In this document: piece by piece, positions 27,817-43,411 of the stretch
Numbering within the stretch: the stretch's first letter is position 1
Layout of the letters: each line of letters opens with the position of its first letter
NCBI GenBank assembly: GCA_964522405.1
Contig: CAZFTR010000002.1
Span: 72,032-136,031 of the forward strand
Length of the DNA: 64,000 bases
Reading direction: 5' to 3'
Origin: an uncultured Gammaproteobacteria bacterium
Lineage (GTDB): Bacteria > Patescibacteriota > Patescibacteriia > Magasanikbacterales > UBA922
Program-made: the position numbers and the translations under genes
The notes under the pieces: model-generated
Told to the model about the DNA's origin: nothing
Seen by the model: the letters and a program-made list of their open reading frames with translations, nothing else
Database searches by the model: none

Positions 27817-28481
27817 ATGAATAGCAAAAAACAGATAAAAAATCAAGCCTGGGGGTTTGTAGATTCAAAAGGAATAGAAGTTCCCAATACTAAGCCAATT
27901 TTTGAAGATAGTAAAAAAAATCAACTAAGATTATTTTTCCATCCCGGAAAATTTTTTTATATAATTACATTAAAAAAAATAAAAAAAACCAAAAGAAGGA
28001 TAGAAATTTTTATTCAGAGCCATTTCGTATTTTGGATTTTGGCTGCGGTTCAGGATCAGTCATTGTTGATTTCAAAAAAATGTTTGGCTCTGAATCAGAA
28101 ATTATTGGAATAGATACTTCTCAGTTGCAAATAGATATTTCCAAAAAGAAAATTAAAGAATATGGAGTAAATGCAGAATTAATTTCATATGATGGAAAAC
28201 AACTTCCTTTTAGTGATAATTCTTTTGATATTGTTCACGCTAATCAAGCCTTCAAGGAAGTTGACAATATTCCATATTGTCTTGATGAATTTTATCGAGT
28301 TTTGCGAGCAGGTGGGGCAGTGACAATTTATACTGATTCCAACAAGCACATTGATAAATTATTAAAGGATTCAGGTTTTAAGATTGAAAAGAAGTATTGT
28401 ATTCCACAAAAATTGGCCTGGCTATTTGGTAGAAGTTGTGTTATATTGGCAAAATCAAAAAAAGTACTCATAGAATGTTGA
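27817..28481 (+). pseudogene. class I SAM-dependent methyltransferase (type 11) split by an apparent frameshift in a poly-A tract
   Basis: The N-terminal reading frame (27817..about 27980) and the frame holding motif I (ILDFGCGSG, from about 27915 to 28481) overlap across the runs aaaaaaaataaaaaaaacc at 27973-27990. Together they give a normal 221 aa methyltransferase. Confidence 0.5.
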
Positions 28482-28511: not shown

Positions 28512-29033
28512 ATGCATATTCCGTCATTAGAAGAATTAGACAATATCAGAAAAAGCGGTTTTAGGCCACAGGTTGTTGGTTGTTTTTTGAATGAAAAAAA
28601 TATTTTATTTGTTTTTAAAAAAGATTATGATCTTTGGCAGTTGCCGCAGGGTGGGATAGATAATCAAGAAATATTAGAGCGAGCAGTTGTTCGAGAAATG
28701 ACAGAAGAATTAGGAGATAATTTTGTGGAAGCTTCAAGTAAGCAAATAGAAATTATTGGAGAAAACAAAGTTGAGTTTCCTTCGAGTACTCAAAATAAGA
28801 GGGACTTAAAGACAGATGATGGTGAAGATGTATTTATGAAAGGAAAAAAATATTTTTTTACCGCTGTAAATACAGAAAATACAGAATTAGATATTTCTGA
28901 AACAGAGTTTGATGATTATAAGTGGGTTAGCTATGAACAGGCAATTAAATTGTCTGATAAAATTTATCAAAAAGGTAAAAAGAGAATTACTTTGGATACC
29001 TTGGAGAAATTGAAGAAAAGAAAATTATTATAG
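28512..29033 (+). CDS. NUDIX hydrolase
   Basis: Nudix box GGIDNQEILERAVVREMTEELGD. Confidence 0.8.
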   Translation: MHIPSLEELDNIRKSGFRPQVVGCFLNEKNILFVFKKDYDLWQLPQGGIDNQEILERAVVREMTEELGDNFVEASSKQIEIIGENKVEFPSSTQNKRDLKTDDGEDVFMKGKKYFFTAVNTENTELDISETEFDDYKWVSYEQAIKLSDKIYQKGKKRITLDTLEKLKKRKLL

Positions 29034-29222: not shown

Positions 29223-29311
29223 GGTGGACTTGGGGCCGGTAATTTAATCGGTTAAAATCCAGCCTTTAGCAAGCTATAATCCGGGTTCAAATCCCGGTCG
29301 GTCCACTACCA
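29223..29311 (+). tRNA. tRNA-like element with atypical geometry; possible unusual tRNA or tRNA pseudogene
   Basis: 7-bp acceptor helix GGTGGAC/GTCCACT, then A and encoded CCA. The T-arm CCGGG-TTCAAAT-CCCGG is canonical, but 3 extra nt separate it from the acceptor and the D and anticodon arms are non-canonical. An own terminator lies at 29326-29352. Confidence 0.3.
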
Positions 29312-39180: not shown

Positions 39181-39274
39181 AATTAAAGAAATATTAGAAA
39201 ACCCTCAAGAAATTGAGGGTTTTTTGATTGTGGAACCGAAGGTGGACGGAGATCTCCTTCGGTAGGTGTTGTTG

Positions 39275-39682
39275 TCAGGGAGTCTCGCCCTCGTAGAGCT
39301 TGGGACAGTGCCGGCGCAGGCGGGCGCGCCAGCGATCATTGGCGCACTCAGCCGGGCACCAGAATCCGAGTCTGCACATCAGGCGCTCGGCCAGCCGGTA
39401 GCCGATCTCGCGGATGTCACCGACCGCCTGGGTGCCGATGAACCGGTGCGGAATCCCGCAGCGGTCGAGAAAGGTCAGTGCTCGGGTGCAGGGGTCGGTT
39501 TCTCTTCCAACCCAGCTGAACTCCTCGGAGATGTATCCGTCTTCGAGGGCGCGCGTCAGACGCGCGCCGAAGCCGAACTCGATGAGGGGTCTGGGGTTCC
39601 CTTCGACGATTTCACAGAGAACCAGGATGCCACGGTGATCTCTGTCACCGAGGATCCGCATCATGTGGCGGTATTCTGTCAT
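39275..39682 (-). CDS. GC-rich hypothetical protein (135 aa) with C-terminal Cys cluster
   Basis: About 62% GC. GGAGAAGG Shine-Dalgarno sequence, promoter TTGCAA-17/18-TAATAT on the minus strand (39710-39739), WCPAEC...HCPKL possible zinc ribbon, and a terminator hairpin at 39243-39270. Confidence 0.5.
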   Translation of the reverse strand: MTEYRHMMRILGDRDHRGILVLCEIVEGNPRPLIEFGFGARLTRALEDGYISEEFSWVGRETDPCTRALTFLDRCGIPHRFIGTQAVGDIREIGYRLAERLMCRLGFWCPAECANDRWRARLRRHCPKLYEGETP

Positions 39683-39797
39683 ATTTGCCTACCTTCTCCG
39701 TCCAAAAAACATATTAAAACAAATAGATATTTTTTGCAAGTAAGATTTAATGTTTTTCTTGCATTTTCAGCCATTTTTTAGTAGCATAGGATATGCT

Positions 39798-40582: not shown

Positions 40583-43411
40583 ATGAAAACCTACAAAGAA
40601 TTTTTAGAAAATGGCGGAGAAAAAAAATGGCAAGCAATTTGGGAGGAGAGAGAGCTTTTCAAAACTCCGGCAGACGCAACTTCTGAAAACAAGATGTACA
40701 TACTTCCACAGCTTCCATATCCATCAGGAAGCGGTCTTCATGTAGGTCATGCTGAAGTTTATACTGCATGTGATATCTATTCTCGTTATCAGCGCATGAA
40801 AGGCAAAAAAGTTTTGCAGGTTTTTGGACTTGACTCTTTTGGTTTGCCCGCAGAAAATTATGCAATCAAGACAGGGGTTCATCCCAAGCAAACCATTGAT
40901 CAAACCGGAGAAAATTTTGTTTCCCAAGTAAAAGATTTGGGAATTTCAGTAGACTGGGATAGATTTGTGCGTACCAGTGATGCGGATTATTATAAGTGGA
41001 CTCAATGGTTTTTCTTGTTGATGTACAAACGAGGATTGGCATATAGAAAAAAGCAGGCAGTAAATTGGTGTGAAAGTTGTAAAACAGTTTTGGCCAATGA
41101 GCAAGTTGTAGAAGGAAACTGTGAAAGATGTGACACAACTGTTGAGCAAAAACAAATGGAACAGTGGTATTTGCGTATTACTGAATATGCTGATCGTCTT
41201 CTTGAGGGTTTGGAAAATATTGATTGGCCAGAAGAAACCAAAAAGCGCCAAGCAGATTGGATTGGAAGAAGTGAGGGCGCTGAAATAGATTTTGCGATTT
41301 TTGGTTCAGAGCAAAAAATAAAAGTATTTACCACTAGACAAGATACTTTATTTGGTGCAACCTATATGGTTTTGGCGCCAGAACATGGTTTAGTTCAAGA
41401 ATTAAAAGAAAAAATCGAAAATTTTGAAGAAGTTCAAAAATATATAGACAAAACCAAAAAGAAAACAGATCTAGAGCGACAAATAGAACAGGAAAAAACA
41501 GGAATAGAGCTAAAAGGTCTAAAAGCTATAAATCCGGTAAATGGAGAGGAAATTCCAGTTTGGATTGCTGATTATGTACTCATGGGCTATGGAACCGGAG
41601 CAATTATGGCAGTTCCGGCGCATGATGATCGGGATTATGAATTTGCTAGTAAGTTTGGGATTGAAATTAGAGAGGTTGTTGCAAAGAGGTTTGGAGAGCC
41701 GGTTGAGGGGGCAGAGCATAGAGACTGTGTTTTTGGAGTTGTGGTAAGGAATGAAAAAATTCTTGTTTTGTATGATAAAGAAAATAATGAGTATCGTTTG
41801 CCTGGAGGTGGGTATGATGGAGAAGATGAAATCAAGGCTCTTGAACGAGAGTTGATTGAGGAGTCAGGTTATACAGATTTTGAAATTGGAGATTGTTTAG
41901 GAACAATAAATAGTCATTTTTATGCAGTTTTGAAAAAGGTGCAGAGATCAAAATTTTCAAGAGCATATGTGATCAATGTTAAATCAGACAATCAGCAGCA
42001 GGTTTCAGATGAAGATGCAGTTTACGAAATAAAATGGTTAGAGCCGGAAAAAGCTTTTTCGGCCTTAGAAGGAAACAAGGAAGACGCTGGAGAATACGAG
42101 TTTGTAAAAAGATATATTGAAAAAAGCAATTTCCACAATGACAATGGTGTAATGATAAATTCAGATTTTCTAAATGAATTAACAGTATCAGAAGCAAAAG
42201 AAAAAGCACTTGATTGGCTGGAAGAAAAAAAACTTGGAAATAGAAAAGTGCAGTATAAACTTCGAGATTGGTCAGTTTCGAGGCAGAGGTTTTGGGGTGC
42301 GCCGATTCCGATGCTTTATGATGAAAAGGGTGAGCTACAACCAGTACTAGAGGGGGATTTGCCGGTTATATTACCAGACGACGTAGATTTCAAACCAACA
42401 GGGGAGTCTCCACTTAATTACTCAAAATCTTTTAATGATGGAGTAGAAGAGAAATATGGAAAAGGCTGGAAACGAGAACCAGACACACTTGATACATTTA
42501 TGTGCTCAAGCTGGTATTTTTTCCGATATTTGGACCCAAAAAATGAAACAGAATTTGCCTCACCAGAAGCTCTCAAAAAATGGATGCCAGTGGATTTTTA
42601 TCTTGGTGGTCCAGAACATGTCAATGGGCATTTACTCTATGCTAGATTTTTCACCAAGGTCTTATTTGACGCTGGGTATATAGATTTTGATGAGCCTTTC
42701 AAAGTAAATAGACATCAAGGATTGATTTTAGGAGAAGATGGTAGAAAAATGAGTAAGAGATGGAATAATGTGGTAAATCCAAGTGATGTGGTTTCTGAAT
42801 TTGGAGCTGACACCTGTCGTATGTATGAGATGTTTATGGGGCCACTTGAAGATGATAAGCCGTGGAATATGAATGGTGTGAAGGGGATTAGTAGGTTTTT
42901 GGAGAGAGTGTGGAGATTGCAAGAAAAAGTTCAAGATTCTGTTTCAGATGAAAATCTAGAAAAATTAGTAAATAAAACAATTAAAAAAGTTGGTGAAGAT
43001 CTCTCAGCTCTTGGCTTTAATACTGCAATTGCAAAATTAATGGAGCTTTCAAATGCGTTTGGAAAAGCAGAGAGTATTTCAAAAGAAAATTTCAAAGTAT
43101 TTATCAAAATGCTTTCTCCATTTGCTCCTCATGTCTCAGAAGAACTTTGGAGTGATCTCGGTCATGAAAGTTCATTAATTCTCGAAACATGGCCAAAATA
43201 TGATGAATCAAAAATTATAGAAGAAAAACTAACCCTAGCAGTTCAAGTAAACGGAAAAGTTCGAGCAAATATCGAAATTGACGCAGAAGAAAACGAAGAG
43301 AAAATAAAAGAATTGGCTCTAAACCAGGAAAACGTTCAAAAATGGCTGGAAGGAAAAGAACCAAAGAAAGTAATCTATGTAAAAGGACGTTTGGTTAGTG
43401 TGGTAGTTTAA
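40583..43411 (+). CDS. leuS: leucine--tRNA ligase with an inserted NUDIX-box domain
   Basis: HVGH (HIGH) and KMSKR (KMSKS) motifs, zinc knuckle CESC...CERC and CP1 editing TTRQDT / MAVPAHDDRDYEF. A roughly 180 aa insert at about 41690-42235 carries a perfect Nudix box GGGYDGEDEIKALERELIEESGY. Confidence 0.9.
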   Translation: MKTYKEFLENGGEKKWQAIWEERELFKTPADATSENKMYILPQLPYPSGSGLHVGHAEVYTACDIYSRYQRMKGKKVLQVFGLDSFGLPAENYAIKTGVHPKQTIDQTGENFVSQVKDLGISVDWDRFVRTSDADYYKWTQWFFLLMYKRGLAYRKKQAVNWCESCKTVLANEQVVEGNCERCDTTVEQKQMEQWYLRITEYADRLLEGLENIDWPEETKKRQADWIGRSEGAEIDFAIFGSEQKIKVFTTRQDTLFGATYMVLAPEHGLVQELKEKIENFEEVQKYIDKTKKKTDLERQIEQEKTGIELKGLKAINPVNGEEIPVWIADYVLMGYGTGAIMAVPAHDDRDYEFASKFGIEIREVVAKRFGEPVEGAEHRDCVFGVVVRNEKILVLYDKENNEYRLPGGGYDGEDEIKALERELIEESGYTDFEIGDCLGTINSHFYAVLKKVQRSKFSRAYVINVKSDNQQQVSDEDAVYEIKWLEPEKAFSALEGNKEDAGEYEFVKRYIEKSNFHNDNGVMINSDFLNELTVSEAKEKALDWLEEKKLGNRKVQYKLRDWSVSRQRFWGAPIPMLYDEKGELQPVLEGDLPVILPDDVDFKPTGESPLNYSKSFNDGVEEKYGKGWKREPDTLDTFMCSSWYFFRYLDPKNETEFASPEALKKWMPVDFYLGGPEHVNGHLLYARFFTKVLFDAGYIDFDEPFKVNRHQGLILGEDGRKMSKRWNNVVNPSDVVSEFGADTCRMYEMFMGPLEDDKPWNMNGVKGISRFLERVWRLQEKVQDSVSDENLEKLVNKTIKKVGEDLSALGFNTAIAKLMELSNAFGKAESISKENFKVFIKMLSPFAPHVSEELWSDLGHESSLILETWPKYDESKIIEEKLTLAVQVNGKVRANIEIDAEENEEKIKELALNQENVQKWLEGKEPKKVIYVKGRLVSVVV

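Follow-up and report, generated by a model that had tools for sequence, protein, structure and literature searches.

What is a Nudix box doing inside the editing domain of a leucyl-tRNA synthetase (LeuRS)? The question is raised by leuS, a 942-residue open reading frame (ORF) on the forward strand (40583..43411) of the window, which is the 64,000-nucleotide stretch of contig CAZFTR010000002.1 analyzed here. A sequence-only reading of this DNA had suspected that a Nudix-fold domain is inserted in the connective peptide 1 (CP1) editing domain encoded by this gene. As judged from sequence comparisons and structure models, the insert is a true Nudix-fold domain within CP1. Sequence comparisons with relatives further showed that the loop it occupies is among four or five CP1-proximal hot spots for interchangeable enzyme cassettes in the LeuRS of the candidate phyla radiation (CPR, or Patescibacteria).

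By its sequence the host gene unambiguously encodes a bacterial-type LeuRS. The whole protein scored 954.4 bits with the leuS_bact model TIGR00396 (cutoff 548.4) and matched Thermus thermophilus LeuRS (1H3N) in phmmer with E = 4e-217 and 39% identity. In the 1H3N alignment, query residues 12-375 paired with Thermus residues 9-370 and query residues 518-717 with Thermus residues 377-579, so that approximately 142 residues (aa 376-517; 41708..42133, forward strand) stand in place of a six-residue loop (Thermus 371-376). The same insert interrupts the PF13603 profile of the editing domain at position 145 of 185. The larger N-terminal part of CP1 (aa 225-371; 41255..41695) matches profile positions 2-145 with 208 bits, and the C-terminal part (aa 518-560; 42134..42262), modeled with a helix at aa 535-548 and a strand at aa 552-558, leads back to the catalytic core. 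Because the alignment gap and the split profile both fall there, the insert is placed inside CP1 and not in the leucine-specific domain.

Alignment with T. thermophilus LeuRS thus delimited the insert to aa 376-517. The insert caps a hairpin of CP1 that we designate site A; the leucine-specific region lies downstream and is absent from this protein. The boundaries proposed earlier, 41690-42235 (aa 370-551), cover the insert and extend some 34 residues into the C-terminal part of CP1. The unusually long stretch noted between the flanking motifs, put at about 190 residues, is real and slightly longer than estimated: MAVPAHDDRDYEFA (aa 342-355) and RDWSVSRQRFWG (aa 561-572) are separated by 205 residues. 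Measured from AHDxRD to RDW, the distance is 215 aa in the query versus 73-79 aa in at least 40 non-CPR LeuRS, a baseline of Firmicutes, Spirochaetes, and other sequences obtained from a scan of GTDB representative genomes.

The resemblance of the insert to Nudix hydrolases goes far beyond a chance match to a sequence motif. The Nudix profile PF00293 aligned with aa 383-500 and scored 43.6 bits when run on full-length LeuRS and 46.4 bits for the segment taken alone (E = 5e-12; cutoff 21.1). The strict pattern GX5EX7REUXEEXGU found a single match in the entire protein, GGGYDGEDEIKALERELIEESGY at aa 408-430 (41804..41872, forward strand), which contains the catalytic residues R422, E423, E426, and E427; the box had rightly been described as perfect. 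The segment ahead of it, VFGVVVRNEKILVLYDK, earlier called beta-strand-like, was predicted to form two beta strands (aa 378-389 and aa 392-398).

An AlphaFold2 model of the insert alone, built from 39 homologous inserts, had a predicted local distance difference test score (pLDDT) of 92.4 and a predicted template modeling (pTM) score of 0.85, and displayed the alpha/beta/alpha sandwich of a Nudix fold, with the box in a loop-helix-loop whose helix spans residues 47-59 of the model. In the model of full-length LeuRS (pLDDT 87, pTM 0.75), which Foldseek superimposed on LeuRS-tRNA complexes with template modeling (TM) scores of 0.76-0.83, the insert region retained a pLDDT of 90-95. The models show the Nudix domain on the surface, at the tip of a beta-hairpin that forms a stalk on CP1. 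Foldseek returned 420 matches to the insert in the PDB at E <= 1e-3, and each of the 50 listed was a Nudix-fold protein. The top match was the MutT/nudix protein 2AZW of Enterococcus faecalis (E = 1e-10, TM 0.72, 25% identity), followed by the diadenosine tetraphosphate (Ap4A) hydrolase 3I7U of Aquifex (TM 0.68-0.80). Further neighbors were the T. thermophilus ADP-ribose pyrophosphatase, AtNUDT7, Mycobacterium smegmatis MutT1, DIPP enzymes, and BdRppH. Pfam, AlphaFold2, and Foldseek therefore all bear out the suspected Nudix-fold insertion in CP1.

The closest 120 LeuRS came from Candidatus Magasanikbacteria and other Patescibacteria, in agreement with the CPR affiliation assumed in the sequence-only reading. 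Site A was occupied by a Nudix domain in 49 of these relatives, and the strict Nudix box was present in 46 of the 49; the other three differ only at the first Glu (E7). Across 39 inserts sharing 19-39% identity with the query insert, G409, R422, E423, E426, E427, G429, and W485 are invariant, and E414 is found in 36. The catalytic glutamates are thus held in diverse homologues, although the inserts are only about 30% identical among relatives versus about 70% for the LeuRS core.

We estimated dN/dS by the Nei-Gojobori method from two close pairs only. In the pair P0032/P0039, omega was 0.047 for the insert versus 0.056 for the core, with dS approximately 1.0 versus 0.83; in the pair P0004/P0037, omega was 0.20 for the insert versus 0.12 for the core. 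Within a lineage, these sequence comparisons show the insert evolving about as conservatively as the LeuRS core, under purifying selection. Since the catalytic residues are invariant and omega lies at 0.05-0.20, the domain is predicted to be a catalytically competent Mg2+-dependent pyrophosphohydrolase. The same observations disfavor the idea, also raised at the outset, that the insert is a degenerate structural element.

The host enzyme is likewise preserved. Motif invariance was scored in an alignment of 40 LeuRS that included both insert-bearing and insert-free proteins. The HIGH signature of the synthetic site, HVGH (aa 53-56; 40739..40750), has H53, G55, and H56 invariant, and the KMSKS-type signature KMSKR (aa 722-726; 42746..42760) is invariant. 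In the editing site, T251, R252, D254, and T255 of the Thr-rich motif TTRQDT (aa 250-255; 41330..41347) are unchanged throughout, as are H347, D348, R350, and D351 of AHDDRD (aa 346-351; 41618..41635), which includes the conserved Asp. Beyond the KMSKR signature, an anticodon-binding domain (aa 790-906; 42950..43300) was recognized by PF08264 with 78 bits. All of these features lie on the forward strand. The alignment thus shows that the insert leaves HVGH and KMSKR of the synthetic site, and TTRxDT and AHDxRD of the editing site, unchanged. Both editing motifs are kept in 63 of 68 Nudix-bearing LeuRS, the exceptions being fragments, conservative variants, or the very divergent P0133, a multi-Nudix LeuRS that lacks the Thr-rich motif.

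Ahead of KMSKR, a short GEDG turn takes the place of the leucine-specific domain (42725-42760, aa 715-726). The spacing from RDW to KMSK is 161-163 residues, equal to that in Bacillus and Clostridia LeuRS, and the absence of the domain is ordinary, as in LeuRS of the approximately 800-residue Bacillus/Clostridia type. The LeuRS of M. mobile reportedly has a comparable GKDG tetrapeptide (PMC3643597).

The genomic neighborhood was compared as well. In the window the order is gdh, an intervening ORF, an inositol-monophosphatase-family gene (Inositol_P), leuS, and comEC. The order from gdh to comEC recurs in other contigs around leuS genes bearing a Nudix domain or a Nudix domain plus a hydrolase, and the insert-free L013 has the downstream part (leuS, comEC, and a methyltransferase gene) in common with L009. 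Because this synteny is shared, insert-bearing and insert-free leuS are best regarded as alleles or orthologues at one locus and not as specialized paralogues. The gene context thus shows this to be the resident housekeeping leuS of a Patescibacteria genome, probably one related to Magasanikbacteria. Given intact motifs and conserved synteny as the resident leuS, the enzyme is predicted to retain both leucylation and editing activity.

How common is such an arrangement? The set of 120 relatives is skewed to the architecture of the query, and its insertion sites were mapped against an insert-free LeuRS of 785 aa (P0041). In addition to the 49 Nudix domains, site A held an S-adenosylmethionine (SAM) methyltransferase in three relatives and a HAD phosphatase (HAD_2) in one. 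Several others carry unassigned inserts of 63-128 aa there. We considered whether these mid-size inserts are decayed Nudix domains, but they gave no significant match to a hidden Markov model of the Nudix inserts, and the three scanned had no Pfam match. At a second hairpin following RDWSVSRQR (site B, near query aa 580), a Ser-hydrolase domain of the alpha/beta fold, approximately 183 aa in length, is found in 50 of the 120 (~42%), including P0003, P0004, and P0007, with one example encoded at L009:4726-5280. These cassettes keep an HG motif, the GxSxG Ser, and the His at a mean identity of 37%. A Ser hydrolase also occurs at site C, directly ahead of the Thr-rich motif. The identities of the guests at sites A, B, and C were confirmed by Pfam.

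An exhaustive HMMER search with the insert alone gave 437 matches among 1.84 billion representatives, and the best of these were almost all LeuRS. A word-indexed protein search with the insert alone returned no matches, and a genome-contig scan with the insert alone recovered no relatives; the contig scan with the whole protein was dominated by ordinary LeuRS and gave several CPR examples. Among GTDB representatives, the site-A Nudix domain was found in Magasanikbacteria, Saccharibacteria, Paceibacterota, Taylorbacteria, Vogelbacteria, other Patescibacteria, and Gracilibacteria using genetic code 25, and the source names of the relatives add Dojkabacteria and Nomurabacteria.

Some LeuRS carry more than one Nudix domain. 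Pfam recognized three Nudix stretches each in P0128 and P0133 and two in P0125 and P0135; in such proteins the domains lie in tandem ahead of CP1 as well as at site A. Nudix domains also lie elsewhere, at site C in P0205 and P0179, near aa 274 in P0164, and near reference position 472 in P0136. Ham1/ITPase-like domains were detected at site C in three independent LeuRS (L020:3733-4368, P0130, and P0211) with scores of 23.5, 26.9, and 31.7 bits versus a cutoff of 22.5, so that two of the three matches are barely above threshold. One further LeuRS (P0124) has a DUF559 Vsr-like, restriction-endonuclease-like domain in-frame in CP1 at reference position 236 (site C; 113.9 bits), and this nuclease guest could hint at the way in which such sites are invaded.

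Sequence comparisons also show repeated gain, loss, and replacement of the cassettes. Presence of the insert is patchy across a neighbor-joining tree of the LeuRS core, and core and insert distances are only weakly correlated (r = 0.31). Three pairs, P0009/P0011, P0028/P0073, and P0019/P0035, have cores that are 86-89% identical and Nudix domains just 25-33% identical. Sliding windows of 30 residues localized the sharp drops in identity to the inserts; in P0019/P0035 the Nudix domain differs and the hydrolase cassette is conserved. In P0004/P0037 it is the hydrolase cassette that differs, with 28% amino acid identity and a saturated proportion of synonymous differences (pS) of 0.79, versus a pS of 0.49 in the core; such saturated synonymous divergence argues for replacement of the cassette and not for fast drift.

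Site A has been occupied by at least three Nudix lineages that are little alike outside the box. The query insert is of type I, and is 33-34% identical to P0137 and to P0143, the latter verified as free-standing from its genomic context. Type II inserts are 35-38% identical to P0275, whose gene adjoins ftsZ, and to P0273, both likewise verified as free-standing, versus 15-26% identical to type I inserts. The LeuRS inserts were monophyletic with respect to free-standing Nudix proteins in 0 of 100 neighbor-joining bootstraps, and at least five changes between the embedded and the free state were counted. These insert trees were built by neighbor joining on short, divergent domains, and transfer may have run in either direction, by capture or by escape. 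Relatives of type II also occur as two tandem Nudix genes (L005:1034-3428) beside a fusion of GNAT and an aminoglycoside-phosphotransferase-like (APH) domain and a PPDK_N/phosphoenolpyruvate (PEP)-utilizing protein; this neighborhood, which includes the free-standing relative P0278, resembles antibiotic-modification loci.

Several candidate intermediates and donors were discarded. P0207, an apparently free-standing Nudix protein that grouped within the inserts, proved to be a fragment of LeuRS from an organism reading UGA as Gly (code 25), and it was reclassified before the final monophyly test. A route by fission of leuS, capture, and refusion was unsupported, as P0134 ends at a contig edge and P0196 proved to be a complete leuS whose start had been called wrongly. 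With only 22-25% identity to the methyltransferases embedded in LeuRS, the methyltransferase encoded downstream of leuS-comEC was dismissed as their donor.

These cases also illustrate how the genes are recorded. Nudix-bearing leuS of Gracilibacteria-like organisms with code 25 (UGA = Gly) are present on L004 (the entire 616-nt contig) and at L019:3001-6399, and reading such a gene with code 11 splits it and yields a spurious "free-standing" Nudix ORF. The public call for P0196 (574 aa; L088:2891-5722) starts at an internal Met inside the Nudix insert, and the frame is continuous from the true N-terminus. Public annotations of insert-bearing LeuRS range from leucine--tRNA ligase to "class I tRNA ligase family protein," "alpha/beta fold hydrolase," and "hypothetical protein."

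Can the Nudix subfamily of the insert be told from its sequence? The RppH/NudH equivalogs (NCBIfam, PRK00714) scored 16-20 bits versus cutoffs of 116-241, and the MutT1-type 8-oxo-(d)GTPase model NF052459 scored 20.1 bits versus a cutoff of 475, all below cutoff. Diadenosine polyphosphate hydrolases reportedly, following Dunn and coworkers in 1999, have a conserved Tyr about 16-18 residues past the Nudix box. The query has Y447 at +17, and the same column in the 39 inserts holds Tyr in 18, Phe in 11, and other residues in 10; an aromatic residue stands 16-17 positions past the box in ~73% of inserts. The ADP-ribose pyrophosphatase subfamily is marked by a Pro about 15-16 residues past the box. 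This Pro was not found in the query, where +15 is H445 and +16 is F446, and it is uncommon in both columns of the 39 inserts.

We rank first the reading that the insert is an independently folding, active house-cleaning nucleotide pyrophosphatase carried on a permissive loop of LeuRS, and we give it a probability of roughly 0.5. The domain would act autonomously as a Mg2+-dependent pyrophosphohydrolase of nucleoside diphosphates linked to another moiety, X, or of nucleoside triphosphates (NTPs), clearing aberrant or by-product nucleotides; an adenine dinucleoside polyphosphate such as Ap4A would be one of several candidate substrates. It would be displayed on the stalk of the mobile, solvent-exposed CP1, with LeuRS serving chiefly as a permissive and constitutively expressed scaffold, and the cassettes would probably be swapped by homologous recombination in the leuS flanks, which are highly conserved. 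Because both termini of LeuRS are functionally occupied, the N-terminus by the catalytic core and the C-terminal domain by tRNA binding, internal CP1 loops may be the sites at which additions are tolerated. The guest families at the CP1-proximal sites are Nudix (one to three copies), Ham1/ITPase, HAD phosphatase, SAM methyltransferase, alpha/beta-fold Ser hydrolase, and the DUF559 nuclease-like domain. Free nucleotides are favored over tRNA-linked substrates, since the co-occurring guests are mostly of house-cleaning families and ITPase acts on free NTPs.

Several considerations weigh against this reading. None of the subfamily signatures tested points to a substrate, and the window already encodes a free-standing RppH/NudH-like Nudix protein (28512-29033). 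The Nudix, HAD, methyltransferase, and alpha/beta-hydrolase superfamilies are among the commonest, so that the house-cleaning theme may in part reflect availability, and the trees and the set of relatives carry the limits described above. The scaffold idea also leaves unexplained why LeuRS would be chosen over other abundant proteins. The large hosts of this Nudix domain in the exhaustive search are almost all LeuRS and the independent captures are always in or beside CP1, which favors a degree of functional coupling to LeuRS or tRNALeu over a mere scaffold. Two alternatives therefore stay live: one in which the guest is coupled to LeuRS chemistry and one in which it serves repair or immunity.

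In the former, which we hold to be possible though well behind the scaffold reading, the Nudix domain would clear Ap4A and Ap3A or released non-cognate aminoacyl-adenylates, a nucleotide-level clean-up beside the post-transfer editing site. Aminoacyl-tRNA synthetases are the cellular source of Ap4A, and the Nudix enzymes NUDT2 and NudH degrade it. Apart from the near exclusivity of LeuRS as host and the recurrence of captures in or adjoining CP1, this idea draws on the Ap4A hydrolase 3I7U as second-best structural neighbor, on a match to the Nudix diadenosine polyphosphatase 9CXX, and on the frequent aromatic residue at +16/+17, Y447 in the query. That residue is, however, the expected Tyr at +17 in just 18 of the 39 inserts, and the RppH/NudH equivalogs stayed far below their cutoffs. 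Aminoacyl-adenylates, being mixed anhydrides, are atypical Nudix substrates; co-inserted ITPase, methyltransferase, and HAD domains misfit an Ap4A-specific role; and the presence of three dissimilar Nudix lineages at site A argues against one conserved substrate pocket. Somewhat more doubtful is the proposal that the cassettes belong to conflict and repair, reversing damage to the acceptor end of tRNALeu (for example, 3'-pyrophosphorylation or nucleotidylation by a toxin) or detoxifying LeuRS inhibitors that mimic the adenylate, with cassette turnover as the trace of an arms race. Replacement and polyphyly of the cassettes do recall fast-diversifying conflict systems, every insertion site is either on the domain that accepts the tRNA 3' end or next to it, the tandem Nudix genes near P0278 with their GNAT-APH fusion and PPDK_N/PEP-utilizing neighbor look like an antibiotic-modification locus, and NCBIfam holds a family of isoleucyl-tRNA synthetase (IleRS) with a GNAT domain (NF040702). 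Yet the known substrates of Ham1/ITPase and SAM methyltransferases are free small molecules, the Nudix domain and the core evolve at the same slow pace within a cassette type (omega 0.05) and show no sign of positive selection, and LeuRS binds tRNALeu only, which would limit the benefit of repair. Moreover, no toxin or defense genes were found flanking leuS, either in the window or in the contigs syntenic with it. A related and equally tentative view, no more probable than the coupling to LeuRS chemistry, is that CP1 of CPR LeuRS could be a dedicated docking platform whose interchangeable cassettes act in cis on the acceptor end of tRNALeu, on aminoacyl-adenylates, or on adenylate-mimicking toxins, as a modular and quickly swapped second layer of proofreading, repair, or immunity.

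That the domain is a catalytically dead structural or regulatory module, such as a ligand sensor or an aid to tRNA binding, appears unlikely. Non-catalytic Nudix sensors exist in NrtR and in the NUDT9H domain of TRPM2, and the insert is indeed poorly conserved apart from the box and one Trp. But sensor Nudix domains typically lose catalytic residues, whereas here R422, E423, E426, E427, and G429 are invariant in 39 inserts of several lineages, omega is 0.05-0.20 across the entire domain, and the catalytic Ser and His are retained in the alpha/beta-hydrolase cassettes too. Least probable, and very improbable in our judgment, is a selfish mobile element of the intein-like or homing type, or an artifact of assembly or annotation. 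Essential genes are classic homing sites, the inserts are patchily spread on the LeuRS tree, and the DUF559 Vsr-like nuclease domain of P0124 sits at a neighboring site. Against this, the Nudix fold fills the insert by both Pfam and AlphaFold2, and no Hint, intein, or endonuclease domain was detected in it; direct or inverted repeats at its borders did not exceed chance; and its GC content equals that of the flanks, with no compositional break. The frame is continuous in at least 49 independent metagenomic homologues, the catalytic residues are under purifying selection, and the one suspected split gene, P0196, reflects a start error of the gene caller.

Other features of the window were recorded alongside. 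An island of 63.5% GC (39266-39700; 77% at third codon positions) stands within the 36% GC window between gdh and the inositol-monophosphatase-family gene and holds an ORF of 135 aa on the minus strand (39275..39682). This ORF had no significant match in Pfam, NCBIfam, PHROGs, or Rfam, and the corresponding slot of a syntenic contig contains an unrelated ORF of 101 aa. Either acquisition from a high-GC organism or a chimeric assembly probably accounts for the island. Farther upstream, the free-standing Nudix gene at 28512-29033 (forward strand) encodes 173 aa, scores 61.5 bits with PF00293, has the RppH/NudH-like motif WQLPQGGI, and bears only a distant relationship to the insert of LeuRS. It is preceded by a SAM-methyltransferase ORF (28032-28481, forward strand), which is probably truncated or frameshifted because motif I starts at residue 2, and is followed by a tRNA-Leu(tag) gene (29233-29306). 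Neither this methyltransferase nor this Nudix protein is close to the cassettes, and both were rejected as cassette sources.

The wider interest lies in an essential, highly conserved LeuRS that, across a whole bacterial radiation, repeatedly gains complete enzymes that appear active, maintains them under strong selection, and exchanges them at a small number of defined loops. Should the guests be autonomous, they would represent a natural case of extreme gene economy and reveal permissive insertion sites of use in engineering aminoacyl-tRNA synthetases. If they are coupled to their host, they would form a new layer of translational quality control, or a defense acting on adenylates, dinucleotide alarmones, or tRNA ends. 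There are practical consequences as well: insert-bearing LeuRS genes are prone to misannotation, and LeuRS is a common phylogenomic marker in which the inserts have mosaic histories. Our full-text searches turned up no paper describing a LeuRS with an internal Nudix or other enzyme domain, nor any on insertions in CPR LeuRS. Extra domains in aminoacyl-tRNA synthetases (for example, IleRS-GNAT) and Nudix fusions (for example, MutT1) are already known; the family-wide cassette behavior would be the surprising part for a specialist.

Compared with canonical LeuRS from T. thermophilus (1H3N, 2BYT, 2BTE) and E. coli (4AQ7, 4ARC), the query has the same order of Rossmann core, ZN1 region, CP1, KMSKS, anticodon-binding domain, and C-terminal domain, but a 142-residue Nudix domain where the canonical enzymes have a six-residue CP1 loop, and GEDG in place of the leucine-specific domain. 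Free-standing Nudix proteins (2AZW, 3I7U, and CPR proteins P0143, P0137, and P0275) share the fold and box of the insert at a size of approximately 140-170 aa. In contrast to these, the insert lacks its own start and stop codons, is nested in-frame within another domain, and falls below the RppH and MutT1 models; its closest structural match, 2AZW, is a protein without established function. M. smegmatis MutT1 (5GG5 and related structures, ~290 residues in the crystals; TM 0.64-0.67 to the insert) also joins a Nudix domain to a second catalytic domain, although there the two are combined and not nested in a loop.

The IleRS family with an N-acetyltransferase domain (NF040702) likewise unites a class Ia synthetase and a small-molecule-modifying enzyme in one polypeptide, but with IleRS as host and GNAT as guest, where the query has LeuRS and Nudix. 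We know of no cassette turnover or multi-family repertoire in that family. A 2026 survey of domain insertions in Protein Science (PMC13114784) classed PF13603 as "insertion-exclusive," with 213 events and never as host. CP1 is thus a guest only in that survey, whereas in the query it is inserted in the Rossmann fold as usual and yet also acts as host. The arrangement has three levels, with the Nudix domain nested in CP1 and CP1 in turn nested in the catalytic core.

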